Source: Candidatus Uhrbacteria bacterium (GTDB taxonomy: Bacteria > Patescibacteriota > Patescibacteriia > UBA9934 > GWF2-40-263). From it: a stretch of DNA of 54,255 nt. This document shows positions 13,379 through 50,925 of this stretch, piece after piece (position 1 is the stretch's first letter; the number at the start of each line of letters is the position of its first letter). The position numbers and the translations under genes are program-made. The DNA lies in the NCBI GenBank assembly GCA_903843045.1, contig CAIMOJ010000027.1:1-54255 (forward strand). The letters are read 5' to 3'. Below the pieces are notes generated by a model. It was not told the origin of the DNA. It saw nothing but the letters and a program-made list of their open reading frames with translations, and searched no databases.

Positions 13379-14611
13379 ATGCGCCTGATCGACCTCACGA
13401 CAACCGCGTACGAGTCATTGCGCCGGAACGTGTCCCGCTCGCTTCTGACCGTCCTTGGCATCGTCATCGGGATCGCGGCCGTCATTTTGATGCTGTCGCT
13501 CGGGCAGGGGGCGCAGGCATACGTGCTCAACCAGGTGTCGGCGCTGGGTTCGGACGTCATGTTCGTGGAGGCGGGCAGCGGCAGCAGCGAGGGAGGGCCG
13601 CCGTCGCCGTTTACCGACCAGTCGCTCCGGCTCGAGGACGCGGAGGCGCTCGTGGCGCAGGGTCCGTTCGAGTATGCCTCGTCGGTGGTTATTACGAGCA
13701 CGGCGGTTTCCGCGGGCGAGAACAGCGCGTTCACCGAGATCGCCGGCGTCGACCAGCTTCAGCTCGACGTATTCCCGGCAACGATCGCCTCGGGACGGTT
13801 CGTGGAGGCCGAGGACGTGGCAGGGCATGCGCGCGTGGCCGTCCTCGGGAGCGAGATCGCCGCCGACCTGTTCGGAGACCAGGATCCGATCGGCCAGCGC
13901 GTGCTCGTGAAGCGGCTTGCCATGCGCGTGGTGGGAGTGCTCGATCCGCAGGGGAGCAAGTTCTTCCAGAACCTCGACAAGCGAATATACATCCCCGTCA
14001 CGACGGGCCAGCGCGAGCTGCTCGGGGTCGACTACGTCCATTACATCGCGGCCAAGGCGACGGGCGACATCGAACAGGCCAAGGATGACGCGCGCGCGAT
14101 TCTCCGCGACGCGCACAACATCGACAACCCGGAGCAGGACCTGTCGAAGGACGACTTCCATGTCTCAAGCCAGGCCGACGCCGTGGCCATCATCGGCGCG
14201 GTCGGATTCGCGCTCACCGCGCTCCTGTCGTCCATCGCGGCCATCTCGCTCCTGGTCGGAGGGATCGGCATTATGAACATGATGCTCGTGTCGGTCACGG
14301 AACGGACGCGCGAGATCGGCTTGCGGAAGGCGATCGGCGCCACCGAGTCCGAGGTGCTCCAACAGTTCCTTCTTGAGGCGGTGATGCTCACCCTTCTCGG
14401 CGGCGTCCTCGGCATCGCGCTCGGCATCGGCGGGTCGTTCGCGGCGTCGATCGTCATCCGACACTTCGTCCCGGTCTGGGCGTTCATCGTCCCGCCCTCT
14501 GGAGTCGCGGTCAGCGCGACGGTCGCGACGATTACCGGAATTGCCTTCGGGTACTATCCCGCAAGGCGCGCCGCCCGCCTCGACGCCATCGAGGCGCTGC
14601 GATACGAGTAA
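13379..14611 (+). CDS. ABC permease, MacB/FtsX family
   Basis: RSLLTVLGIVIGIAAV, GGIGIMNMMLVSVTERTREIGLRKAIGA, PARRAARLDAIEALRYE. Confidence 0.93.
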   Translation: MRLIDLTTTAYESLRRNVSRSLLTVLGIVIGIAAVILMLSLGQGAQAYVLNQVSALGSDVMFVEAGSGSSEGGPPSPFTDQSLRLEDAEALVAQGPFEYASSVVITSTAVSAGENSAFTEIAGVDQLQLDVFPATIASGRFVEAEDVAGHARVAVLGSEIAADLFGDQDPIGQRVLVKRLAMRVVGVLDPQGSKFFQNLDKRIYIPVTTGQRELLGVDYVHYIAAKATGDIEQAKDDARAILRDAHNIDNPEQDLSKDDFHVSSQADAVAIIGAVGFALTALLSSIAAISLLVGGIGIMNMMLVSVTERTREIGLRKAIGATESEVLQQFLLEAVMLTLLGGVLGIALGIGGSFAASIVIRHFVPVWAFIVPPSGVAVSATVATITGIAFGYYPARRAARLDAIEALRYE

Positions 14612-34585: not shown

Positions 34586-34614
34586 TTGACACTTTCCTCC
34601 AAATGTGATATTCT
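34586..34614 (+). promoter_or_regulatory. Promoter of MopE-motif gene 1
   Basis: TTGACA-N17-TATTCT with TG extension; about 220-nt structured leader follows. Confidence 0.75.
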
Positions 34615-34838
34615 CCGACCTTGCTAATCGTTCTTTCCCGTTGCCTCGATTGGCCCGACGTCTCCCTGGCACACCTCCTCCTTGTGCCAGGATCGGACGC
34701 CGGACCAATCGACGCCGCGGGGAATCCTCTTCCGCACGTCAACAAACCCCGGTAACACGGGGTGCAGCGACGCGCGGGGATGGTCCTCGCACGTCAAACA
34801 CCCCGGTGCAAGCCGGAACCCCAGCCAGGAGATCAACC

Positions 34839-36233
34839 ATGACCCAGACCCTCAAGACCAACGGAGGCTCCATGAGCCAGATTTCTTTCCTCGCCCTCGT
34901 GGGCGTTCTCGTCAGCACCCCGGCGTTCGCCGTCACCCCCTGCGCCCCGGTCGCGCCCTGCAAGTCGGCCCCGGTCGTCGAGCCCCTCAAGGACTGCGGG
35001 GCCGCGAACGACGAGCTCTGCACCGAGGCGACGGACGTCGACAAGGACGCCTACTACAGCGACAGCAAGTCGCGCCTCGACTGCGACGACACCAAGGCGA
35101 CCGTCCACCCGACCGCGACCAGCGTGATCGGCGACGGCCTCGACAACGACTGCAGCGGCGACACCGACGACGAGGAGCTCGCCGCGGCGCTCATCGCGGC
35201 CGGCGGCGAAACCAGCCCCGCGGGCATCGCGCTCGCGAAGGACATCGACTCGTGCTGGAACAGCACGGTCGTCGGCGCGGAGGACGCGTACTGGTCCAAG
35301 GGGTCCAAGAAGCCCTGGACCTGCAACGGCCTGGCCGACGGCCTCTCGTTCGAGCGTGGAAAGGGTGTCCTGACCGAGACCCAGACCCACGACCTCGAGT
35401 CCGCCCGGCGCATCGCCGGCGACCGCGCGGTGGCCGCCAAGGCGAAGGCCGAGGCCGAAGCCGTGATCGCGGACGCGAAGGCGACGATGAAGGCCGACGT
35501 GGACGCCGACAAGGCGTACTTCGCGGAGCTGATCTCGCAGAGCGAGGCGACCGTTGTCGAGCTCAGCGCGAAGATCGACGCGTACGATGCCCGGCTCGCC
35601 CAGTTCGAGCTCGACGCGAAGCACGCGGCCTCCCTCCAGAAGGGGATCGACGCGCGGCAGAACGATGCCATCGGCGCGAACACCGCCGACATCGGCGACC
35701 TGCAGCGGCGTGGCGTCATCTTCGAGATCGGCGCCGGCGCCGGTTTCCTCGCCCAGCGCTCGCTGGTCGATGCGGACGGCACGGTCTACCGCAGCGGGAT
35801 GGTCGGCTTCGGCAACGTCGTCGCCAGCATCGGGTACGGGATCCCGAACGCCAGCCTCACCCTCGACCTGAGCTTCGGCGAAGGGTCGACGGGGAGCCTC
35901 GGCGGGACGGTCCCCGACACGGTCGCCTCGGCGGCGGTGGTCGGCCAGTACCGGCACGGCGACATGGCCATCGGTCCGATGCTCACGCTCAGCAGCAGCG
36001 CCACCGGCAACCCGCTGGACTCGGGCGTGAGCGGCTGGGGCCCGGGCATCGGTGCCGCGGCCTCCTGGTTCGCCCCGAACGAGAAGGGGCTGCGGATCGA
36101 GGTCAAGACCCACCTCACGGTCGGTCTCGAGAACTTCGGCACGGACACCAGCCTGACCACCAAGTACTGGGACTCCGGTCTCATGGGCGAGGGCGGCGTC
36201 ACCGTTCTCGTCGGTGGCGGTCCCCGCAAGTAG
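34839..36233 (+). CDS. Secreted protein: one MopE-type metal-binding motif, coiled coil, C-terminal beta-barrel-like domain
   Basis: DCDDTKATVHPTATSVIGDGLDNDCSG; signal peptide ending TPAFA; two in-frame SD-ATG starts (34839, 34872). Confidence 0.75.
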   Translation: MTQTLKTNGGSMSQISFLALVGVLVSTPAFAVTPCAPVAPCKSAPVVEPLKDCGAANDELCTEATDVDKDAYYSDSKSRLDCDDTKATVHPTATSVIGDGLDNDCSGDTDDEELAAALIAAGGETSPAGIALAKDIDSCWNSTVVGAEDAYWSKGSKKPWTCNGLADGLSFERGKGVLTETQTHDLESARRIAGDRAVAAKAKAEAEAVIADAKATMKADVDADKAYFAELISQSEATVVELSAKIDAYDARLAQFELDAKHAASLQKGIDARQNDAIGANTADIGDLQRRGVIFEIGAGAGFLAQRSLVDADGTVYRSGMVGFGNVVASIGYGIPNASLTLDLSFGEGSTGSLGGTVPDTVASAAVVGQYRHGDMAIGPMLTLSSSATGNPLDSGVSGWGPGIGAAASWFAPNEKGLRIEVKTHLTVGLENFGTDTSLTTKYWDSGLMGEGGVTVLVGGGPRK

Positions 36234-36262
36234 GCTCTCCGTGGGTACCCACTCCCACACCT

Positions 36263-36296
36263 CCCCGGCAGTTCATACTGTCGGGGATTTTTCTTT
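36263..36296 (+). terminator. Terminator of MopE-motif gene 1
   Basis: CCCCGGCAG-ttcata-CTGTCGGGG then T-rich run. Confidence 0.7.
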
Positions 36297-36312
36297 CGGG
36301 CTACGGCCCGAA

Positions 36313-36441
36313 GGCTGCGAATAACGTATGAGCTACATATCACACAAATTGTTACGTATTCCTACAAACCAGTGTAATATCAGCATCCGCTGCGATTCGT
36401 AGCAATACGTAGGATGTGCAGCTCATACGTTATTCGCAGCC
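36313..36441. repeat. AT-rich 129-bp element with perfect 22-bp terminal inverted repeats
   Basis: GGCTGCGAATAACGTATGAGCT (36313-34) is the exact reverse complement of 36420-41. Confidence 0.9.
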
Positions 36442-36450
36442 CGTTTTCCC

Positions 36451-36479
36451 TTGACAAATCTCACTATTCCTGCTACAGT
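36451..36479 (+). promoter_or_regulatory. Promoter of MopE-motif gene 2
   Basis: TTGACA-N17-TACAGT with TG extension. Confidence 0.75.
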
Positions 36480-36648
36480 ACGACCTTGCCAGAAATGACG
36501 CGCGAGACACTTGTCGAAAGGACATCAAACCTTTCGCCAGATGCCTCCCGCTTCTCGACGCAATCCCGCGTCTGAAAGTGGGTCCAGTCCGGCTTCCCAC
36601 AAGGGCCGGTTCCCAGCCCTGTGGGGCAACATCACCAAGGAGTCTCGA

Positions 36649-37389
36649 ATGCGCACACTGATCCTTTCCCCCCTGGTCCTCGCGGCCGTCGGCTGCAACC
36701 CTTCCGTCGTCGGCATCAAGCTCGATGACACCGGCTGCACCGGCTGCTCCGGCGACACCGACGCGGATACCGACACCGACACGGACACTGACGCCGACAG
36801 CGACGCGGACACCGACACGGGCACGGCGGACCCGAACGACGTCGACAACGACGGCGACGGTTACACCGAGAACGGCGGCGACTGCAACGACGCGGACGCC
36901 TCCGTCTGTCCCGGCGCGACCGACACCGCGGGTGACGGCATCGACCAGGACTGCAGCGGGGCCGACGCGTCCAGCTCGGATCCGTACGCGGACTACACCT
37001 GGGTCGACGGCGACAGCCTCTGCTTCTCCACGGACGGGTTCAACTTCCCGTACGACGAGGCCGCGGCCTACGCGGTCGGCTACGGCACCGGCATGGACTG
37101 GACCCTCAAGGCCAGCCACGCGGTCTCCCCGGTCGACAGCAGCGACTGCGTCGACACGAGCGCGTGGGAGTACGACACGTACACCATCACCCTGATCTCC
37201 TCGCTGCAGAGCGACGGGTCCCTCACGACCAGCTACGCCGACACCGGCGACTGGTGGGACAACTTCGACTTCTGCACGTCGGGCTTCCCGACGGCGCTGA
37301 GCTTCTGCACCGAGATGGAGGATGGCAACTACCTCGTCTCCGTCTCGAAGACGACGGAGGGCCTCGTCCCCGCGGGCGACGGCTCCTAG
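36649..37389 (+). CDS. Lipoprotein with DT/DA repeats and one MopE-type motif
   Basis: AAGGAG SD; lipobox LAAVGC; DTDADTDTDTDTDAD tract; DCNDADASVCPGATDTAGDGIDQDCSG. Confidence 0.8.
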   Translation: MRTLILSPLVLAAVGCNPSVVGIKLDDTGCTGCSGDTDADTDTDTDTDADSDADTDTGTADPNDVDNDGDGYTENGGDCNDADASVCPGATDTAGDGIDQDCSGADASSSDPYADYTWVDGDSLCFSTDGFNFPYDEAAAYAVGYGTGMDWTLKASHAVSPVDSSDCVDTSAWEYDTYTITLISSLQSDGSLTTSYADTGDWWDNFDFCTSGFPTALSFCTEMEDGNYLVSVSKTTEGLVPAGDGS

Positions 37390-37505
37390 TCGTCGCGGTT
37401 CACGGCGTTGAGCGCTAGGTAACAGGGACAACCGAACAACCGGCCCATCGGCATTCCGCCGATCCTCTCCAGCTCCCGGTGTGGGACGAAGGACTGCTTC
37501 CTAGC

Positions 37506-37540
37506 GCTCCTCGCCCACCGCGGGAGCTCTTTTTTATTTT
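37506..37540 (+). terminator. Terminator of MopE-motif gene 2
   Basis: GCTCC...GGAGC stem then T-rich run. Confidence 0.6.
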
Positions 37541-37553
37541 GCTACGGCAAAAT

Positions 37554-37721
37554 TTGCGAATAACGAATTAGTTACTTATTACACATATGCAACGTATTGG
37601 AACGAATGGGTACAAATTCGTCCGTTCGTTTTTTCGTTCTCGCGTCTTTCCCGTTCGAATACGTAGCATCTGTAGCAATACGTTGCATATGTGTAATAAG
37701 TAACTAATTCGTTATTCGCAA
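37554..37721. repeat. AT-rich 168-bp element with perfect 46-bp terminal inverted repeats
   Basis: 37554-37599 is the exact reverse complement of 37676-37721; 76-bp spacer. Confidence 0.93.
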
Positions 37722-37778
37722 CCCCGCCCCCTCCAACCCCTATCTTTTCTCCCCCCAACATGCTATCCTCCCCCAGTT

Positions 37779-40403
37779 ATGCCTCTCTTCCCCCCACAAC
37801 TCCTCCGAGAAATCGCAACCCCTGAGTCTTTTCGACGTGGGAAGACGTACGTGGAGGATGGCGCGGTTGAGAACGTGGAACTGTCGCGGACGGCTTCGGG
37901 GAAGATCAAGATCACGGGGACCGTCTACGGCAGCGTCTCGTATCACACGAGCATGATCGTGGACGGCGACGCGTTCGAGGTGGAGTCGTACGACTGCGAC
38001 TGCCCGTATTCGCAGGGCGGGGCGTGCAAGCACGTGGTCGCGCTCGGGCTCGTGGCTGCCCGTCGGTCCGTCGTGCCCGAGAAGGCGCCGCCGACGCGAA
38101 CGTCGAAACTGTCCGCGGCTGATGCCGATCTCCTTGAGACGCTCCGTGCCCACGCGGCAAAGCGAGGGGTCGTGCTCGACGACGTGAGCGCGGCGAAGGC
38201 GGCGAAGCACCTTGAGAAATTGCTGGTGACCCATGGGTCCGGAAACGTCTCGGCTTCGCGGAAGCCACCGCAGGAATACGTGCTCGGACGCATCGAGCTC
38301 TCGTTTTCGTATAACCGCGTGAAGGACCTGATCCTCGCAAAGGCCACGGCGGCATACGGTCCGCTTGTCTATCCGGTGGAGACCGGATGGCCGGTGGAGG
38401 GAGAAGAGGACGGAAGGCACGTGGCGCTGCGCGACTGGCACGAGGAACGGTCGGCACGCGTGGCGCTTGAGAACGAGGGATTTTTCTCGATGGGGAAGGG
38501 GACGTTCGAGCTGCCGGCCGAGGAGGCATTTGAGTTTTTGCGCGACGGGATGTCGCGGCTTTCGGAGACGTACGCGATTCTGGTCGACGAGGCATTCCAG
38601 TCATTGTCGACGATCCGCACGGCCGAGGTTACTTCGGACTGGGACTTTGGCGAGTCGTCGGGGACGGACTGGCTTTCGTTCTCCGTCGATTGGAAGTGCG
38701 GCGACCGTCCGCTGACCCCCGTCGAAATTTCCGGACTCGCTTCGGGCTACGGGAAATTCATCCGCGCGGCCGACGGGTCGTTCGTGGAAATTTCGAACCA
38801 GGATCTCATCCGCCGCATGGCCGAGGTGGCGGACGTCACTGGCCGCCAGACGATCACGCGCGCGCGGGCGATCGAGCTCGCGCTGCTTGCGGGCGAGACG
38901 TCCGGGATTCGAATGCGCGAGACGACCGAATCGATCGCGTCGTTCCTTCGCGATGCGAAGGAAGGGAAGCTGATCGGGGATCCGGAGATTCCAAAGGCGA
39001 TCGGCACGGTTCTTCGGCCGTACCAGCGCGATTCCGTCGCATGGGCATTGTTTTTGAGGAAGTATCGCTTCGGAGGGGTTCTGGCCGATGACATGGGCCT
39101 TGGAAAGACGCTTCAGGCACTTGCGATCATCTCGACGGAACGCGTGGCCGGGACGCCGCCGTCGCTTGTCATTTGTCCGAAGACGCTGATCTCGACATGG
39201 GTCGCGGAGTCCAAGCGGTTTACGCCGGACCTCAGGGTCGTCGCGGTCGAAGGAAATGCAAGGGAGCGCAAGGCCGTTCTCGAGCGCGCGGCGTCGACCG
39301 ACCTGTTTGTCACGTCGTACTCGCTTTTCCAGCGCGACGCGAAGCTGTATCAGAAGATCCCGATGCACTACGCGATTCTCGACGAGGCGCAGTATGTGAA
39401 GAACTCGAAGACCGCGACCGCGCTTGCCGTCAAGACACTGAAGGCAAGCCACCGGCTGGCGCTGACCGGAACCCCTCTGGAGAATGGCGTTCACGAGCTG
39501 TGGTCGCTCTTCGATTTCCTGATGCCGGGACTGCTTGGTGATCAGAAAATGTTCAAGACGACGTTCGAGCGGCCGATCAAGGAGTTCGGCGACAATGAGA
39601 GGCTTCAGACGTTGAAGCGTCGCGTGAAGCCGTTCCTCCTGCGTCGCACGAAGGAATCCGTGGCGCCCGAGCTGCCGCCGCGCATCGAGCAGAACGACTG
39701 GTGCGAGCTGACGGAGGTTCAGGCGTCGCTGTACGCGGAGGTGCTGGCTTCGACGCGACGCGACGTGTTCGAGGCGGTCGAGAAGAAGGGGTTCAACCGG
39801 TCGCGCATCGAAATTCTGGCCGCGCTGACGAGGCTTCGACAGGTGTGCAACCATCCGGCTCTGGTCGACAAGCGTTTGTCGAAGGGGGAGGACGTTTCGG
39901 GAAAATTGGCGTACGCGCTCGAGCTGCTTCGCGAGGCGGCCGACGGAGGCCACAAGGTCCTGTTGTTCAGCCAGTTCACGAGCATGCTCGACCTGATTCG
40001 TCCGGAACTCGACAAGATGGGAATCGGCCACGTGACGATCGAGGGAAAGACCAAGGATCGCGCCGGAGTCGTCGATCAATTTCGTAACGACCCGACCAAG
40101 CACGTTTTTCTTCTGTCTCTCCGCGCCGCCGGAACGGGCCTGACCCTCACCGAGGCCGATACCGTCGTCCTCTACGATCCTTGGTGGAACCCGATGGTCG
40201 AACGCCAGGCCATGGATCGCGCGCACCGCATCGGCCAGACCAAGTCCGTGAACGTCCACAAGCTGGTGACGAAGGGAACGATCGAGGAAAAGGTCCTTGC
40301 GCTCCAGGAAAAGAAGAAGGCGATCTTCGATGCGGTCGTTTCGGATTCCGCCGAGGGGTTGAAGGGTTTGACCTGGGAGGACGTGCAAGTACTTTTCGCT
40401 TAA
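37779..40403 (+). CDS. SWIM zinc finger plus SNF2-family helicase/ATPase
   Basis: CDCPYSQGGACKH (SWIM), LADDMGLGKT, ILDEAQYVKN, ALTGTPLEN, LFSQFT, AAGTGLTLT, QAMDRAHRIGQ; TGcTATCCT-N9-ATG. Confidence 0.93.
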   Translation: MPLFPPQLLREIATPESFRRGKTYVEDGAVENVELSRTASGKIKITGTVYGSVSYHTSMIVDGDAFEVESYDCDCPYSQGGACKHVVALGLVAARRSVVPEKAPPTRTSKLSAADADLLETLRAHAAKRGVVLDDVSAAKAAKHLEKLLVTHGSGNVSASRKPPQEYVLGRIELSFSYNRVKDLILAKATAAYGPLVYPVETGWPVEGEEDGRHVALRDWHEERSARVALENEGFFSMGKGTFELPAEEAFEFLRDGMSRLSETYAILVDEAFQSLSTIRTAEVTSDWDFGESSGTDWLSFSVDWKCGDRPLTPVEISGLASGYGKFIRAADGSFVEISNQDLIRRMAEVADVTGRQTITRARAIELALLAGETSGIRMRETTESIASFLRDAKEGKLIGDPEIPKAIGTVLRPYQRDSVAWALFLRKYRFGGVLADDMGLGKTLQALAIISTERVAGTPPSLVICPKTLISTWVAESKRFTPDLRVVAVEGNARERKAVLERAASTDLFVTSYSLFQRDAKLYQKIPMHYAILDEAQYVKNSKTATALAVKTLKASHRLALTGTPLENGVHELWSLFDFLMPGLLGDQKMFKTTFERPIKEFGDNERLQTLKRRVKPFLLRRTKESVAPELPPRIEQNDWCELTEVQASLYAEVLASTRRDVFEAVEKKGFNRSRIEILAALTRLRQVCNHPALVDKRLSKGEDVSGKLAYALELLREAADGGHKVLLFSQFTSMLDLIRPELDKMGIGHVTIEGKTKDRAGVVDQFRNDPTKHVFLLSLRAAGTGLTLTEADTVVLYDPWWNPMVERQAMDRAHRIGQTKSVNVHKLVTKGTIEEKVLALQEKKKAIFDAVVSDSAEGLKGLTWEDVQVLFA

Positions 40404-40458: not shown

Positions 40459-40596
40459 TGTCCACTAACCTGTTGCCGGGCTTGGGATCCAAACCATGGA
40501 TCTTATGCCTGGCCACATGGTGTGGTCAGCTGTGATTTTGTCAGAAACAAACGGTCTTTCGACCACCACGCCTGGAAACAGGCAAAGGAGCTAACC

Positions 40597-41982
40597 ATGC
40601 TCATCCTCCTCGCCCTTCTGGGCTGCGCCCCCTCCGTCATGCCCTCCAACAACGTCGTCGACACCGGGTCCGTCCCGAGTGACACCGGCACGGACACGGG
40701 CGCGACGAACGACAGTGACAACGACACCGGTTCCGACACGGCGACCGACAGCGGTACCGACTCCGCCGACAGCGGCGCCGGCACGGACACCGGCGCGGCG
40801 GACACCGACACGACCGACAGCGGCGGAACGGACAGCGGGTCCGACACCGGCGCGGCGGACACGGACACCGGCGTCGCCGACACGGACACCGGCACGGCGG
40901 ACACGGACAGCGGCGGAACGGACAGCGGGTCCGACACCGGCACGGTCGACACCGGCGTGGACTGCGGGACGTACGTCTCGAGCTGCGACGGGACCGTCGT
41001 GAGCTGGTGCGAGGGATCCGCGGTCCTCACGTACGACTGCGCGGACGCCGGCAGCTACGAGTGCAGCGATGCCTCGGGCACTGCCGAGTGCGTCTACGTC
41101 GAGACCGACGCGGACCTCGACGGCGTCACCGTCGAGGAAGGCGACTGCGACGACGCGGACGCCACGGTCTACCCCGGCGCCCCAGAGATCGCCGACGACG
41201 GCGTCGACCAGGACTGCTCGGGCGCCGACGAGGTCACGCTCGAGGACGACGTCGACGGCGACGGGTACGGCGTGTCCGAGGACTGCGACGACACGAACCC
41301 CTCGGTCAATCCGGGCGCCGTCGAGACCTGCAACGGGATCGACGACGACTGCGACGCGAGCATCGACGAGGGCCTCACCGGCACCTGGTATGCGGACGCC
41401 GACGGCGACGCGTTCGGAGATGCGGACACGTTCGTGACCGGGGCCTGCTCGGCGGCGAGCGGCTACGTCGCGGACAGCTCCGATTGCGACGACTCCGAGA
41501 TCGACGTCCACCCGGGCGCGGCCGAGATCCCGGACGACGGGATCGACCAGGACTGCGACGGCAGCGACGCCACCATGGCCGAGCTGCAGGACGTTGCGGT
41601 CTGCTCGTCCGGCCAGGAAGCCTGCTTCCGGGACGTCGATGGGAACGGGTCGTACGAGACCCTGCTGATGGACGAGGCCCAGATCTACGGGATGCCGGCG
41701 ACCGCCGAAGTCTACGAGAACGGGTCGGGCACCGGGTGCGGGCTCAGCGGCGACAGCGTCGGCAGCAATGCCGCCGGCTACTACGTCGTCTCGTTCGAAG
41801 GGCTCTCGAGCTGCACCTCCCAGGTGTCGGTCGTGAGCACCAGCGGGTCCTCGACCTACTGGTGGCAGAACTACACGTTCTGTACCGACGGTAGCGACTC
41901 CCAGGGGATCTGCGTGGCCACGGGCACGTTCGACTTCCTGATCGAGATCGACTACCGGAGCTCGACGGGCCTGCGGTTCTAG
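40597..41982 (+). CDS. Lipoprotein with DTG/DSG tract and three MopE-type motifs
   Basis: AAGGAG SD; MLILLALLGC lipobox; three DCDD-x-PGA-E-x-DG-D-DC units. Confidence 0.82.
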   Translation: MLILLALLGCAPSVMPSNNVVDTGSVPSDTGTDTGATNDSDNDTGSDTATDSGTDSADSGAGTDTGAADTDTTDSGGTDSGSDTGAADTDTGVADTDTGTADTDSGGTDSGSDTGTVDTGVDCGTYVSSCDGTVVSWCEGSAVLTYDCADAGSYECSDASGTAECVYVETDADLDGVTVEEGDCDDADATVYPGAPEIADDGVDQDCSGADEVTLEDDVDGDGYGVSEDCDDTNPSVNPGAVETCNGIDDDCDASIDEGLTGTWYADADGDAFGDADTFVTGACSAASGYVADSSDCDDSEIDVHPGAAEIPDDGIDQDCDGSDATMAELQDVAVCSSGQEACFRDVDGNGSYETLLMDEAQIYGMPATAEVYENGSGTGCGLSGDSVGSNAAGYYVVSFEGLSSCTSQVSVVSTSGSSTYWWQNYTFCTDGSDSQGICVATGTFDFLIEIDYRSSTGLRF

Positions 41983-42049
41983 CCCGCACGAAAGGCGTCC
42001 GCATGATGGGACGCAGCGAAGGCAGGCTAAGGAGAGGACAACCACTCTG

Positions 42050-42111
42050 CGCTCCCGACAGGGAAGAGCCGCTCGCTGCGCTCCCGTCCTGTCGGGAGCG
42101 TCTTTCTTTTT
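42050..42111 (+). terminator. Terminator of MopE-motif gene 3
   Basis: CGCTCCCGACAGG / CCTGTCGGGAGCG 13-bp stem then T-rich run. Confidence 0.7.
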
Positions 42112-42124
42112 CCTGGCGTTTCTA

Positions 42125-42153
42125 TTGACAAAGTTCCAGGATCATGATATTAA
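42125..42153 (+). promoter_or_regulatory. Promoter of MopE-motif gene 4
   Basis: TTGACA-N17-TATTAA with TG extension. Confidence 0.65.
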
Positions 42154-42271
42154 TACCACTCGTTTTGGCTGGGAAACCGTGCCAAACGCGAGAAATCAGG
42201 CCCGTTCTTCGGACAATATCACCGGCTGCGGGCCTGACCGTAGCTTCTTCACCCCCCTCACGGAGGATCCA

Positions 42272-43960
42272 ATGCGGATCTATTTCTTGGCTCAGCGTTG
42301 TTTCGCCCTGCTCGTACTCCTGTTGTTTTCCGGCTGCTACTTCATCGGAAATCCCGACGGCGACACGCTGTCCGGGCTGGCCGACTGCAACCCGAACTCG
42401 GACGTTGCGTGCGACAAGGTCGACACCGACGCGGACACCGACGCCGACGCGGACACCGACGCCGATTCCGACGCGGACACCGACACCGACACCAACGTCG
42501 AGACCGGCGACACCGGGGAGACCGGCGACACGGACACGGGCGTTCCGTGCGAGACGTCGACCTGGCATCCGGACTCGGACGGCGACGGCTACGGCGACCC
42601 CGCGACCAGCGCGGAGGCCTGCGACCAACCCGACGGCTACGTGGCCGACGGCACGGACTGCGACGACGCCAGCGCCGACACCTACCCCGGCGCGGCCGAG
42701 CGGTGCGACCTGCAGGACAACGACTGCGACGGCCTGGCCGACGAGAACCTCTCGGAGTCCTGGTACTCCGACTCGGACAACGACGGGTTCGGCGACGAGT
42801 TCGCGAACGTCGACGTGGCCTGCGACGGAACGACCGGCGACCTCGTGGCCGCGCGTGACAGCGACGGCGACGGCGCGGCCGACTTCGACTGCGACGACAG
42901 CAACGCCACGGTCAACCCGCTCGCCGAAGAGGTGTGCGACGAGGCCGACAACGACTGCGACGGCTCGATCGACGAGTCCGGCGCGTTCGGCGAGACGACC
43001 TGGTACGCGGACGCCGACGGCGACGGCTACGGAGCCGGGGCCATGGTGGCCGAGGCCTGCGACGGCGCCTACACGCGCCCCGCCAACGTGTCGAGCCTCG
43101 ACACGGACTGCGACGACGCGCTGAGCGCGACCAACCCGGGCGCGGCTGAGATCTGCGATGGCGCCGACAACGACTGCGACGGCGCGGTGCCGAGCGACGA
43201 GGCGGACCTCGATGGCGACGGCTACAACGTCTGCGCCGGCCTGGACTGCGACGATACATCCGCGGACGCCTACCCGGGCGCCCACGAGAGCTGCGACGGC
43301 GCCGACAACGACTGCGACGGCACCGTCGACGAGAGCGACGCGAGCGACGTGGCCACCTGGTACGTCGACGTCGACGGCGACGGCTACGGCGACGCGGGCA
43401 CGAGCTTCGTCTCGTGCGACGCGCCGATCGGCTACGTGGCCGACGCCAGCGACTGCGATGACTCGGACGCCGCGGTCAACCCCGGTGCGCACGAGGTCTG
43501 CAACGAGATCGACGACGACTGCGACGGCGACGTCGACGTCGCGGCCGAGGATGCCACGGTGTGGTCCACGGACCTCGACGGCGACGGCTACGGTGACGAC
43601 ACCTACGCCAGCTGGCTTGCCTCGTGCGAACAGCCCGACGGCTACGTGGCCGACTTCTCGGACTGCGACGACTCGGACGCGGCGGTCAGCCCGAACGCGG
43701 CCGAGGTGTACGCCAACCTCGTGGACGACGACTGCAACGGGATCGTCGACGACAGCGGGCTCACCTGCTTCCCGGATGCCGACAACGACACGTACGGCGC
43801 CCCGACCGGCGGGATCTACGAGCCCACCGGCGTGTGCGGTACCGCGGGCTACGTCCCTCGGGACAGCGACTGCGACGACACCAACGCCACCACGAACCCC
43901 TCCCGCGCGGAGGTCTACGGCGACGGCGTCGACAACAACTGCGACGGCAGCACGACCTAA
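42272..43960 (+). CDS. Lipoprotein with seven MopE-type motifs and WYxDxDGDGYG units
   Basis: GGAGG SD; lipobox LFSGC; DTDADTDAD tract; seven DCDD...DC(D/N)G units. Confidence 0.85.
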   Translation: MRIYFLAQRCFALLVLLLFSGCYFIGNPDGDTLSGLADCNPNSDVACDKVDTDADTDADADTDADSDADTDTDTNVETGDTGETGDTDTGVPCETSTWHPDSDGDGYGDPATSAEACDQPDGYVADGTDCDDASADTYPGAAERCDLQDNDCDGLADENLSESWYSDSDNDGFGDEFANVDVACDGTTGDLVAARDSDGDGAADFDCDDSNATVNPLAEEVCDEADNDCDGSIDESGAFGETTWYADADGDGYGAGAMVAEACDGAYTRPANVSSLDTDCDDALSATNPGAAEICDGADNDCDGAVPSDEADLDGDGYNVCAGLDCDDTSADAYPGAHESCDGADNDCDGTVDESDASDVATWYVDVDGDGYGDAGTSFVSCDAPIGYVADASDCDDSDAAVNPGAHEVCNEIDDDCDGDVDVAAEDATVWSTDLDGDGYGDDTYASWLASCEQPDGYVADFSDCDDSDAAVSPNAAEVYANLVDDDCNGIVDDSGLTCFPDADNDTYGAPTGGIYEPTGVCGTAGYVPRDSDCDDTNATTNPSRAEVYGDGVDNNCDGSTT

Positions 43961-43973
43961 GCGGTCACTCCCT

Positions 43974-44005
43974 CCGATCGGCACCCTGCCGGTCGGTTTT
44001 TCTTT
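43974..44005 (+). terminator. Terminator of MopE-motif gene 4
   Basis: CCGATCGGCA / TGCCGGTCGG then T run. Confidence 0.7.
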
Positions 44006-44020
44006 GGCCCGGTCGATCGC

Positions 44021-44049
44021 TTGACACGAATTCAATCCTGTGGCATCAT
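44021..44049 (+). promoter_or_regulatory. Promoter of MopE-motif gene 5
   Basis: TTGACA-N17-CATCAT. Confidence 0.55.
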
Positions 44050-44126
44050 TCCCGCTCCTTCACGTGACTGCCCGGATAAGCCGGCTTTTGCGCGTCGGAG
44101 ACCACCAGACAAAAGGCAAAGACAAA

Positions 44127-45683
44127 ATGCTCAAGACGCTCCTCCTTCCGCTGACCATCGCGCTCGCGCTCACCGGTTGCAACGCCTCGGTCGCCCCCGC
44201 CTCCAGCGACGACAACATCGTGCCCGTCTCCGGCGACATGGGCCCCGACGTCGACGGCGACGGCTACGGCTCGGTCGTCGACTGCAACGACGACGACGTC
44301 AACGTCAACCCCGGCGAGCGGGAGACCATCGGCAACGGGATCGACGACGACTGCGACGGCGACGTCGACTGCGACGACAGCGAGGTGCCGATGACCGACT
44401 ACGGTCTCGACGCCGACCGCGACGGGTACTTCGACGACTTCGACGGCGACGGCGCCGTGGACGTGGTCAAGATGTGCGACGACACGGACGAGAACGCGGC
44501 GAAGATCTCCGCGATGACCGGCGGTTCCGGCGACGTCGAGAGCTTCGACCCGATCGTCTACAGCGGCGACCCCTTCACGGGCTACGTGCTCCCCGACGCC
44601 GACTGCGACGACGCGGACGCCGCCGTCAACCCGATGGCCTCCGAGGTCTGCAACGGGATCGACGACGACTGCGACGGCTCGATCGACGACGGCGCGGACC
44701 TGTCCACCTACTACTGGGACGGGGACATGGACGGCTTCGGCAACGCGAGCATCAGCGCGGACGCCTGCGAGCCGGGCGAAGGCTGGGTGCTCGACAGCAC
44801 CGACTGCGACGACGCGGACGCGACGGTCTACCCCGAGGCCCCCGAGCTCTGCGACGAGCAGGCCAACGACTGCCTGACGGCCGACACCTGGATGCCCGCC
44901 GACGAGACGGATCTCATGGGCACCTGGTACGCCGACGGCGACACCGACGGCTACGGCGACGCGAGCATGCCGACCTCGGCCTGCGCGCAGCCCGAGGGCA
45001 CCGTGGCCGGCGACACCGACTGCGACGACGCCGAATGGGCCATCAACCCCGGCGCCGACGAGCTCTGCGACACGATCGACAACAACTGCGACGGATCGAT
45101 CGACGGCACGGACTCGGTTGACCAGGTCACCCGGTACCGCGACCACGACGGTGACCTGTACGGCGATGAGACCTTCACCGCCACGAGCTGCAACGCGCCG
45201 CTCGGCTACATCGACACGAACGGCGACTGCGACGACAACGCGGCCACCACCTACCCGGGCGCTCCCGAGCTCATGAACGGCATCGACGACAACTGCAACA
45301 CGACCATCGACGATGGCGCGACCTGCAGCATCGAGATCGAGCTGTTCACCGGCGACGCGGGCACCGCGACCATCGACGGCACGGTCAGCAACAACACGGC
45401 CCTCGACGGCAACTGGCAGCCGATGGGCGTCGACGGGGTCAGCGTGTCGAGCACCTCGCTCGGCGGCGACGACTGGTACTACGACGTCATGCTCTCCGAC
45501 TGCCTCGGCTCCGGCGACGACATCCGCGTCGACGCCGCGTTCTCCGACGGCACCTGGGGCTGCGACAGCGTCGGCACCCCGTCCGGCAGCCTCCGCGGCT
45601 GGCAGGACGGCTCGCCCCTCAGCGTCGCCTACTCGGCCGACGACGCCGACGGACACTGCGTCCTCGTCGTGACGAACCCCTAG
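44127..45683 (+). CDS. Lipoprotein with five MopE-type motifs and a C-terminal beta-sandwich-like domain
   Basis: Lipobox ALTGC; five DC(D/N)D...DC units; followed by CCGGCC/GGCCGG-T6 terminator at 45699-45736. Confidence 0.82.
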   Translation: MLKTLLLPLTIALALTGCNASVAPASSDDNIVPVSGDMGPDVDGDGYGSVVDCNDDDVNVNPGERETIGNGIDDDCDGDVDCDDSEVPMTDYGLDADRDGYFDDFDGDGAVDVVKMCDDTDENAAKISAMTGGSGDVESFDPIVYSGDPFTGYVLPDADCDDADAAVNPMASEVCNGIDDDCDGSIDDGADLSTYYWDGDMDGFGNASISADACEPGEGWVLDSTDCDDADATVYPEAPELCDEQANDCLTADTWMPADETDLMGTWYADGDTDGYGDASMPTSACAQPEGTVAGDTDCDDAEWAINPGADELCDTIDNNCDGSIDGTDSVDQVTRYRDHDGDLYGDETFTATSCNAPLGYIDTNGDCDDNAATTYPGAPELMNGIDDNCNTTIDDGATCSIEIELFTGDAGTATIDGTVSNNTALDGNWQPMGVDGVSVSSTSLGGDDWYYDVMLSDCLGSGDDIRVDAAFSDGTWGCDSVGTPSGSLRGWQDGSPLSVAYSADDADGHCVLVVTNP

Positions 45684-49119: not shown

Positions 49120-50925
49120 CTATTCGACGATTGCCATTCCTCCGGCCATCGCGTCGTCCGGCAGGCTCGTCGTTATCGCGGTTCCGGACGCCGAGACGAA
49201 CGCGCCCGTCACCGCGTCGGTCGCGGTGACGCGGATATTCCTCAGCAGCGTCGGCGCGGTTCCGGCCTGGTCGGCAGTCGGCATGAGCGACACCTCGAAC
49301 GCGACGCCGACGATCCTGCTGTCCGGCGAGAGGGTCGGGGAGAGGGAATTGGCGGACCAGACGATCTGGTTGCCGGTCTCGGCGACCCCGCCGTTTATCG
49401 AGTCCGTCTGGCGTCCCGTGAACGCGACGTTTTCCCCGAGCTGGCCCTCGATGCGGACGTTCCGGAGCGCGTTCGTCGTTCCGCGGATGTTCCAGAAGAT
49501 CCAGTAGCTGGTCTCCTCGTCGACGGTCGGCGGCAGCGGGCCGCGTCCGATCTGGTCGCCACTCGGCGTCGCGTAGCGGCCGAACGAGCTGAGCACGAGC
49601 GGGGAGGTCATCACGGTCGTGATCGGACTGTCCGAGACGGTCGCCTGGCTGAGCTCGGCCATGTCGAACGTCGCCGAGGCGGTCGTCGCGAACGGGAGGT
49701 TCTCGTAGACCCTCGTCGCGCTCTGCTCGACGGACGTTCTCAGCGGAATCGAAAGCGTGATCGTCCCGGTCTGTCCCGGCTCGACCTTCGCGAGCTCGGG
49801 GTGCGATTGCTTGAAGTTGGCCTCGACGGTCTTCGTCGTCGCGAACGGGCTGTCGCTCGAGACGAAGATTCGCAGGTCCTGCACGGCAACGTCGCCGATA
49901 TTCTCGTACGTCACCGTGACGTTCGCGGAACCTCCGGGACGCACCGTGTCGGTTTCGACGCTGTGGGTAATTCGAATCGGCAGTGGCACGACCTCGGCAG
50001 CCTGCGTCAGCGTCTCCAGCTCGTAGGAATCGGTCCCGAAGGCGAACGACGGGCGGAATCGGAAGGCGAGCGGCTCGGTTGCGTTCCCGATGTTGCCGAC
50101 GAAGCGCGTCGTTCCCTCCGCCCCGGCCGTGAGCGCGGGGATGACGAACAGCCCGTCGCGCATCGGCTCGTCGGCGGAGACGAACGCGAATCCCGCCGGC
50201 CACTCCGGCGCGACGGTAACCTCCGGGTAGTCGATCGCTCCCGTGTTTTTGTACGTGAGCATCCCGTTCATCGGCTGGAACGCGAGGATTTTTTCCGGGA
50301 GGGAAAGCGACAGCTGGAGCGTCGATTTCGACGGCGAGAACGTCTGCGCGTCGGCCTTCTGTCCCGCGACGCTCTTCGCGCCGTGGACGAACGTCATGAC
50401 GCTCCGAAACGTCTGTTCGCCGCCAATCGGCCCGAACATGACCCCGCGGATCTTCACCGACCCGGTCCCGCCGACTGGGATCGTCCCGACCTCGACGACG
50501 CTCCCTTTCGCGACGACCACCCCTGACCCATCCTCCCTTTGAGGAGGGGAAACGATATCGACAGACTGCAGCAGAAAATGCGCGGGAAACTCAAAGACCA
50601 GATTCGCGTCGCGCAGTTCCTCGCCCGTCCTGTTCTCATACCGGATCACGAGCGTCGACGATGCCCCCGAGACGATCTCGCGCGGGGCGACCTCGGCGGC
50701 GAAGACGATCTTGTCCGCGAACGGGACCGGCTTGTACAGAAACAGGACGAGCGCCACGATCCCAAGGGCCGCGGCGAGCCCGATGAGCACGAGGTCGAAC
50801 GAGAACGCGAGGCGCGCGAACCGGTACCTTCCCTCGTACCGATTCTCATACCACCGAACGAGCGGCCACAGGAGAATCTTTCCCGGGTGGGAGGCGAGGG
50901 AGAGGGCTGATCGTCTGATTTGCAT
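49120..50925 (-). CDS. Membrane-anchored protein with tandem Ig-like (DUF11-like) domains
   Basis: One N-terminal TM; repeated L(T/V)YxNxG strand motifs. Confidence 0.65.
   Translation of the reverse strand: MQIRRSALSLASHPGKILLWPLVRWYENRYEGRYRFARLAFSFDLVLIGLAAALGIVALVLFLYKPVPFADKIVFAAEVAPREIVSGASSTLVIRYENRTGEELRDANLVFEFPAHFLLQSVDIVSPPQREDGSGVVVAKGSVVEVGTIPVGGTGSVKIRGVMFGPIGGEQTFRSVMTFVHGAKSVAGQKADAQTFSPSKSTLQLSLSLPEKILAFQPMNGMLTYKNTGAIDYPEVTVAPEWPAGFAFVSADEPMRDGLFVIPALTAGAEGTTRFVGNIGNATEPLAFRFRPSFAFGTDSYELETLTQAAEVVPLPIRITHSVETDTVRPGGSANVTVTYENIGDVAVQDLRIFVSSDSPFATTKTVEANFKQSHPELAKVEPGQTGTITLSIPLRTSVEQSATRVYENLPFATTASATFDMAELSQATVSDSPITTVMTSPLVLSSFGRYATPSGDQIGRGPLPPTVDEETSYWIFWNIRGTTNALRNVRIEGQLGENVAFTGRQTDSINGGVAETGNQIVWSANSLSPTLSPDSRIVGVAFEVSLMPTADQAGTAPTLLRNIRVTATDAVTGAFVSASGTAITTSLPDDAMAGGMAIVE

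Follow-up and report, generated by a model that had tools for sequence, protein, structure and literature searches.

Gene-less hairpin repeats share the arms of a GxxExxY cassette in a Candidatus Uhrbacteria genome

A hairpin element between a terminator and an SNF2 helicase gene

The window analyzed here is a contig of 54,255 nucleotides (C27) from a Candidatus Uhrbacteria MAG (G000), which measures 1.28 Mb, comprises 76 contigs, and is 96% complete. Within it, an inverted-repeat element sits between the terminator of a gene encoding MopE motifs and a gene for an SNF2 helicase, which starts at position 37779. A second hairpin element lies further upstream. The features of this region are the following, with coordinates given as positions of the window:

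37470..37535, + strand: intrinsic terminator of the upstream MopE-motif gene, with a GC-rich stem at about 37470-37529, then TTTTTTATTTT; the T-run starts at 37530
37536..37553, + strand: mini-hairpin ATTTTGC-TACG-GCAAAAT, between the terminator T-run and the left arm
37554..37599, + strand: left arm, perfect over 46 nt, with an imperfect extension to 37608
37600..37675, + strand: spacer of 76 bp, the variable interior of the family, with extra ACGAAT/ACGTAT-type units
37676..37721, - strand: right arm, the exact reverse complement of the left arm
37722..37778, + strand: right flank, which opens with CCCCGCC (GC clamp), followed by GCTATCCTCCCCCAGTT just before the SNF2 ATG
37779..40403, + strand: SNF2-family helicase gene of 874 aa (PF00176, PF00271, PF08455), a neighbor outside the element
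36315..36439, + strand: second hairpin element, of family 2, 125 bp, with arms GCTGCGAATAACGTATGAGCTAC...

The two arms (37554-37599 and 37676-37721) are exact reverse complements at 46 of 46 positions and enclose a spacer of 76 bp, as had been read from the letters alone; when mismatches are allowed, the inverted repeat reaches 55 nt at 93% identity. The element as a whole measures 168 bp and has a GC content of 37.5%, compared to 61% for the genome, so that its earlier description as an AT-rich island between a terminator and the SNF2 gene holds as well, with the upstream stem and T-run on one side and the SNF2 start at 37779 on the other. As single-stranded DNA, the element has a folding energy of -62 kcal/mol, corresponding to z = -13.8 relative to shuffled sequences. 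The extra T of TTTGCGAATAA, with which the repeat had initially been taken to begin, has no mirror partner, and the true start is TTGCGAA at 37554. A third AATACGT copy, also pointed out previously, is indeed present in the spacer, but it is merely another RCNNAT unit like those of the arms. Each arm is in fact an array of 7 such RCNNAT units with a spacing of 7-11 bp, which are found at arm positions 3, 10, 21, 28, and 39, and at positions 49 and 59 of the imperfect part. A hairpin followed by a T-run in the spacer (37599-37640) is peculiar to the window copy. A scan of window positions 36000-39000 against Rfam returned nothing relevant, the one hit being a chance miRNA match.

Some contigs end at hairpins: one, L096, starts at window position 37545, and another, L094, ends at a hairpin. 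This would fit an assembly artefact, in which the repeat is a fold-back chimera, an explanation to which we give practically no credence. The whole element, with both arms and the spacer between them, is contained at 100% identity and with the spacer the same way round in two independent assemblies from other samples and different assemblers, namely in the scaffold L095 and the k141 contig L096; the window repeat is therefore not an assembly fold-back. Orthologous elements are furthermore present in the congener G003. The surrounding region contains a cluster of genes for proteins with repeated Cu-binding_MopE (PF11617) motifs, at window positions 34600-37400 and 40500-45300. At 43192-43509, L095 differs from the window only by an N-gap, which is caused by the internal MopE repeats.

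The SNF2 locus was compared among congeners. In G000 and G003, the locus is filled, with the element at an identical junction, while in G008 and G001 the site is empty and consists of the terminator, 30-60 nt, and a conserved CTGCTATC(C/A)TCCCCCAGTT-ATG. As the SNF2 site is empty in these relatives, the window element is an insertion. The terminator at 37470-37535 belongs to the host DNA and is also conserved in G008, where the site is empty. The mini-hairpin that follows it (37536-37553) occurs in G000 and G003, whereas G008 and G001, with their empty sites, lack it; the tail of the host T-run forms its left stem, and the right stem repeats that tail in inverted form. These comparisons indicate that the mini-hairpin arrived with the insertion. 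All 6 mini-hairpins of this layout in G000, consisting of a T-run and stem-C(TACG/CACG)G-stem, directly abut an arm on its 5' side, with stems that vary by site (window 37536-37553 and 36295-36312, C11:4176, C51:968, C59:2415, and C74:40).

On the SNF2 side, a -10-like TATCCT is found at 37764-37769, 9 nt before the SNF2 ATG, and GCTATCCTCCCCCAGTT-ATG is conserved in 4 genomes. The SNF2 gene has no Shine-Dalgarno sequence. Together, the conserved GCTATCCTCCCCCAGTT-ATG (window 37760-37781) and the TATCCT suggest that the SNF2 leader is very short or absent. The family-2 element, 1.1 kb upstream of the main one, occupies a similar position, between a terminator (36262-36297) and a TTGACA-17-TACAGT promoter (36451-36479), and a mini-hairpin of its own, TTCGGGC-TACG-GCCCGAA (36295-36312), comes just before it. 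At the site corresponding to 36315-36439, G003 contains only a degenerate remnant of a unit.

A repeat family and its GxxExxY cassette

A genome-wide search for copies, which had been proposed when the repeat was first described, retrieved 61 matching places within G000, and the element is thus multi-copy. The genome contains about 20 gene-less hairpin repeats. Family 1, to which the main window element belongs, comprises 10 gene-less paired copies (156-197 bp), one copy of 514 bp, and about 9 solo arms. A related second family, with arms TGCGAATAACGTATGAGCTAC..., has the window element at 36315-36439 as one of its members. When up to 2 mismatches were allowed, the arm pattern TGCGAATAACGWATKAGYTAC was found 46 times in G000, 20 times in G001, and 27 times in G003, and 0-2 times in 6 other congeners; a reversed-pattern control gave 0 matches everywhere. 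Among 43 other genera sampled, the pattern had a single match, which lies beside a GxxExxY gene.

Comparison of the 10 gene-less copies gave 99.2% identity for the outer 36 nt of the arms and 71% for the interiors. Most copies have a GC clamp outside the arms (GCGGGG...CCCCGC), in which the CCCCGCC seen before the SNF2 gene mirrors GCGGGG across the element. The layout is of the REPIN type, in that inverted doublets of the unit fold as hairpins, and solo units occur as well. A separate dispersed repeat of about 46 nt, GCGCGACGACCACCCCTGACCCCTCCTCCCTATGAGGAGGGGAAAC, was also observed, at window positions 50509-50555 and in at least 28 other places in G000. In its hairpin, CCCCTCCTC pairs with GAGGAGGGG, with compensatory variants CCTGCC/CAGGAGG. 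An ATG often follows within a few nucleotides, and the repeat has no match in Rfam; from its sequence, it looks like a leader motif that sequesters the Shine-Dalgarno sequence.

The copy number of the arms bears on a further explanation, namely that the element is a substrate for a recombinase, either as an invertible switch of the SNF2 promoter or as a Xer/dif-like resolution site. Both forms had been entertained on sequence grounds: the inverted repeat is long and perfect, its spacer is short, it lies just upstream of a gene, and its terminal 11-mer resembles the XerC arm of dif. The 11-mer, however, is the end of a repeat whose terminus occurs about 46 times in 1.28 Mb, and no XerD-like arm follows it, whereas a dif site would be single-copy, with adjacent XerC and XerD arms around a center of 6-8 bp. 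For a switch, the spacer would be expected in both orientations, but it has a single orientation in three assemblies, and orientation is likewise kept in two hairpins with an ortholog in G001. The scanned ORFs adjoining the element gave no match to a recombinase family, and the -10-like TATCCT of the SNF2 gene is external to the element and also conserved in the empty-site relatives. A recombinase substrate is consequently a very improbable explanation.

The 514-bp copy is a cassette of the parent type (G000:C40:6391-6904), in which arms of 55-60 bp, perfect over 60 bp, flank a GxxExxY gene. Its ORF matches PF13366 (PDDEXK_3; E = 2.7e-28) and TIGR04256 (GxxExxY; E = 3.8e-28). This is the sole PF13366 gene of G000, and it lies exactly between two arms, on a contig other than that of the window. 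The outer 36 or more nucleotides are common to the window arm and the arms of this cassette. As its arms match those of the sole GxxExxY cassette, the window repeat looks more like part of a nuclease-plus-repeat system than like a switch or dif site. No genes other than the GxxExxY gene were found between arms. Longer arm-flanked segments (C4:13592-13971, G001:C37, C33) contained no GxxExxY remnants, as all matches were translations of the arms; the segment at C4:13592-13971 is host DNA between two solo arms. A cassette with family-2 arms was not found in G000, a 96%-complete MAG, despite the recent family-2 insertions there. Similarly, a profile search of G000 for a Y1 transposase (PF01797), to which the controls responded, returned no match.

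The protein encoded by the cassette is about 134 aa long. The dN/dS of its gene is about 0.06, indicating purifying selection, and the residues G32-x-x-E35-x-x-Y38, as well as D74, E84, and K86, are invariant among 16 homologs. An AlphaFold model of the protein (pLDDT 91.4) has a PD-(D/E)XK fold. The nearest solved folds, at a TM of about 0.5, are generic PD-(D/E)XK proteins: Cas4 SSO0001, the nuclease domain of AdnAB, and lambda-exonuclease-like proteins. A search of PDB sequences with the GxxExxY profile gave no match. Taken together, the dN/dS, the invariant residues, and the confident model indicate that the GxxExxY gene is functional. In a full-text literature search, the name GxxExxY turned up in only three papers, none of which deals with its function.

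Hairpins, cassette alleles, and insertion sites in related genomes

Across 61 related genomes, 15 of the 26 PF13366 loci are bracketed by inverted repeats of 25-61 bp, placed at equal distances from the gene. These repeats are made up of units of the TACGAAT/TACAGAT/TACGGAC type, and each cassette has its own type; besides the cassette of G000, 14 others contain analogous arrays, with unit types including TACGGAA, TACAGAT, TACGGAC, and TACGAAA. A joined query of 11 cassette arms showed that gene-less copies are mostly found in the genome that owns the cassette, with 42 matches in G004, 31 in G002, 18 in G006, and 16 in G008. G005, in which no PF13366 gene was found, had 0 matches to the same query. 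Some congeners contain orphan arm types without a matching cassette, such as arms of the G002 type in G008.

The GxxExxY cassette itself is found at the orthologous locus in G000, G001, and G003, where it stays without signs of movement. The identities between these genomes along the locus are as follows:

Flanks (left, right): G000-G003, 95% and 90%; G000-G001, 62% and 67%
Arms: G000-G003, 57-75%; G000-G001, 95-98%
Gene interior: G000-G003, 71%; G000-G001, 82%

In addition, the dS between the cassette genes of G000 and G003 exceeds 2. Given these opposite patterns of flank and arm identity, together with the high dS, the history of the cassette differs from that of its flanks. A dS above 2 inside flanks that are 90-95% identical indicates that the cassette was swapped.

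The hairpins of each genome match the arms of the resident cassette. When queried with joined flanks, all 10 paired family-1 loci of G000 proved to be occupied at identical junctions in G003, as were several in G001. The arms at these loci are genome-specific, ending in ...AATTAGTTACTTATTACACATATG in G000 and in ...AATTTGTTACTAAATTGCATATGA in G003. In ungapped comparisons between G000 and G003, the likeness of orthologous arm pairs (0.547) does not exceed that of non-orthologous pairs (0.547), while within a genome it amounts to 0.90-0.95. The interiors of the 120-bp hairpins of G003 gave no alignment with their G000 orthologs, whichever way round they were placed, while two orthologous hairpins of G000 and G001 align well in the same orientation. 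Likewise, the solo arm at the DnaJ locus is of the family-1 type in G000 and family-2-like in G001 and G003. Active homogenization, which had earlier been named, as an alternative to a recent origin, to account for the perfect symmetry of the window repeat, fits these data, with arms 99% and interiors 71% alike within G000 and arms that are genome-specific at orthologous sites. That the hairpin population tracks the cassette is, among the sequence data, the chief ground for regarding gene and repeats as one system. While these comparisons establish the link between repeat and gene, we infer from them that the nuclease copies or homogenizes the repeats. RecA-dependent ectopic gene conversion among repeats of 120-165 bp could also homogenize them without a dedicated nuclease.

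Further sites at which filled and empty states could be paired are the following:

C30:13176-13300: filled in G000, empty in G003 and G001; a 1-3-nt stop/start spacer between two operon genes
C76:29371-29496: filled/empty pair
G003:C20:8993-9112: filled, versus the empty G000:C40:543-548; a 4-nt stop/start spacer

Filled and empty sites such as these, along with long terminal inverted repeats, a short non-coding body, multiple copies, and a patchy distribution among congeners, are features of a classical MITE. In such a scenario, a transposase of the DDE or another type, either missing from the 96%-complete MAG or lost, would move the element in trans, and GxxExxY would be passenger cargo. A MITE had indeed been among the first suggestions for this repeat, and in a loose sense the term applies, as the element is a multi-copy, non-autonomous, inserted hairpin. 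The proposed search in relatives, however, yielded empty sites but no target-site duplication in any of the 4 filled/empty comparisons (SNF2 and the three sites above), and no transposase with these ends was found. GxxExxY is the only gene between arms, and the genome-wide transposase search, which covered the Y1 family (PF01797), gave no match. Strong purifying selection acts on the supposed cargo gene, whose locus is fixed, the layout of a gene between arms recurs with unrelated arm sequences (15 of 26 loci), and copies at orthologous sites appear rewritten instead of newly inserted. We therefore regard a classical MITE as quite unlikely.

The positions of the copies bring up another alternative, a repeat that serves the host in a structural or regulatory capacity. 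It could be an RNase III site, an mRNA hairpin, a transcription insulator separating terminator from promoter, or an array bound by a nucleoid protein or regulator, possibly with GxxExxY as the binder, and would be maintained by selection and passive conversion without being mobile. For about 16 arms, the distance from the outer end to a start codon is 3-24 nt; for one, a tRNA is 4 nt away, and for some others a stop codon is 1-17 nt away. Copies are thus placed precisely at gene boundaries, even within operons, such as the hairpin between groES and groEL (C26:13714-13877) and those in stop/start spacers of 1-4 nt. A host function would also be in line with the 99% conservation of the outer arms while interiors drift, with the long-lived occupancy of the same sites across species, and with genes retaining their own promoters outside the element. 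Against this, presence is patchy among congeners that share gene order, and empty sites are found in close relatives and strains, with no replacement feature seen. A 50-nt site conserved at 99% in about 40 places would also far exceed the needs of a regulator, and the catalytic PD-(D/E)XK residues are invariant. A host-serving repeat hence seems unlikely to us, if less so than a MITE. A portable promoter was also considered, as the arm contains TTGCGA-17-TATTAC and ends near start codons and a tRNA. It was dropped as unnecessary, since genes keep promoters outside the elements, such as the conserved TTGACA-17-TACnnT promoters at the DnaJ and 36451 loci, and several copies are merely wedged into operons.

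Differences between strains were studied with contigs from other samples that are about 99-99.98% identical to G000. One hairpin of 162 bp, hairpin C, occupies the 4-nt spacer that is empty at G000:C40:543-548, so that contigs with about 99-99.6% identity in the flanking sequence differ in whether they have it. The site is empty in G000, in the independent assembly L103, and, judging by gene spacing, in another, and filled in 5 samples. Hairpin A, in turn, is replaced in G000 (C40:~1885-1925) by 10 nt of arm and 28 nt of AT-rich filler. Between hairpins A and C, the identity over 1.36 kb is 98.2%, compared to 99.98% outside this segment. Similarly, when C26 was compared to contig L097 over 21.6 kb, all 13 differences were found at 13769-13947, which covers the groES-groEL hairpin and the next 70 nt, the 3' end of groES. 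These divergent tracts at hairpins (the A-C segment and C26) may reflect repair or recombination there, and could in part be due to assemblers switching strains at repeats. On a 13-kb contig from another sample (1hDX6RGj, sample ERZ1426507), the upstream neighbor of a TraC-like gene is an AstE_AspA-type gene instead of PrgI, and this changed neighbor keeps the 204-nt spacing that holds hairpin B. Either the DNA is rearranged there, or sequences were joined at a hairpin repeat during assembly.

A proposed nuclease-plus-repeat system and its known counterparts

By its sequence, the window repeat belongs to the hairpin repeats of the GxxExxY cassette: its arms match those of the PF13366/TIGR04256 cassette in the same genome, and its units are reiterated at a roughly helical spacing. 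The reading that we favor, with moderate confidence, is that it is a gene-less hairpin copy of this family, and that the cassette nuclease drives the spread and homogenization of the copies in a manner resembling either REPINs and RAYTs or Ssn nucleases and their repeats. The RCNNAT units would then be putative binding sites of the cassette protein. The nuclease would cut at or near the arms, probably when these are extruded as a hairpin or cruciform or are single-stranded, and repair from another copy would spread hairpins to gene boundaries and overwrite resident copies. In this way, the whole repeat population would be kept matched to the resident cassette allele, as with REPINs and RAYT, and with SRM/NTS repeats and Ssn, and the perfect 46-bp symmetry would reflect ongoing homogenization, not a recombinase switch. 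The co-variation of cassette and hairpins and the invariant catalytic residues lend indirect support to binding or cutting of the arms. Points that weigh against this reading are the recent family-2 insertions in G000, for which no matching cassette was found, the orphan arm types of some congeners, the immobility of the cassette at its one locus, and the possibility that ordinary gene conversion, or in part strain-switching by assemblers, accounts for the patterns seen.

A more far-reaching proposal, which we put forward tentatively and hold to be somewhat less than probable, is that GxxExxY proteins are sequence-reading PD-(D/E)XK nucleases. After a cassette swap, the new allele would rewrite all hairpins of the genome, paired or solo, in a homing-like process. 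New hairpins would be wedged in without target duplication at boundaries of 1-4 nt, and cutting would leave tracts of recombination or mutation in neighboring genes.

If such rewriting takes place, GxxExxY (TIGR04256/PF13366), a large family with no assigned function, would gain a role. The genus offers a natural experiment in this respect, as sister genomes share hairpin sites and differ in their cassette allele, and the hairpins follow the cassette. The hypothesis that arrays of 6-7-nt units are recognized by the nuclease, which keeps the repeats matched to itself, is thereby made directly testable. Even CPR genomes of about 1 Mb, which are thought of as streamlined, would maintain self-renewing repeats, and do so within operons such as groES-groEL. 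Hairpins in operons have consequences for mRNA structure and recombination, and for metagenome assembly as well, since contigs break at hairpins.

Several known elements share features with these repeats. In 23S rRNA intervening sequences, a long inverted-repeat stem encloses a small ORF of obscure function, and their occurrence is sporadic. RNase III excises these sequences from within rRNA helices, whereas the elements described here lie between protein-coding genes and are mostly gene-less. The Correia elements of Neisseria and other MITEs are likewise non-coding elements of 100-170 bp with terminal inverted repeats, which are intergenic and co-transcribed as hairpins. However, those elements duplicate their target sites and descend from insertion sequences with a transposase, while no duplication was found here, and the sole coding relative is a small nuclease.

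The resemblance to REPIN-RAYT systems, in which REP doublets are associated with a single-copy Y1/HUH transposase (PMC3116915, PMC3337134, bioRxiv 10.1101/2021.07.10.451892), is more extensive. Both comprise tens of short elements with inverted units around a spacer, which form a long hairpin, as well as solo units, and both are placed extragenically, often after terminators. In both, a single-copy cognate gene is flanked by the repeat, stays at a fixed locus with vertical inheritance, and is accompanied by repeats specific to the resident gene. Membership in this class was nevertheless rejected, as PF01797 is absent from G000 and the flanked gene encodes a PD-(D/E)XK GxxExxY protein of about 134 aa instead of a Y1 HUH transposase. 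Moreover, the arms in G000 are arrays of 6-7-nt units over 46-60 bp, compared to about 25 nt with a GTAG head for REP sequences, and the host is a CPR bacterium with a 1.3-Mb genome.

Ssn proteins, finally, are GIY-YIG site-specific ssDNA nucleases with NTS/SRM hairpin repeats (PMC11893778, Nat Commun 2025). As in G000, whose system is known from sequence and a structural model, the gene for a small nuclease is flanked on both sides by a hairpin repeat that is scattered genome-wide, and the type of repeat co-varies with the nuclease homolog, as it does in the genomes compared here. Assignment to Ssn/SRM was rejected all the same: the flanked gene matches PF13366 only, and its fold neighbors are PD-(D/E)XK proteins, in contrast to the GIY-YIG nucleases of Ssn systems. 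The repeats differ too, as an SRM is a single hairpin of about 30 bp, while those described here have unit-array arms and form foldbacks of 120-165 bp. The hairpin repeats of the GxxExxY cassette appear to be undescribed in print and look like a little-described nuclease-plus-repeat system; if the proposed role of the nuclease is correct, they would represent a third class of such systems, beside RAYT/REPIN and Ssn/SRM.
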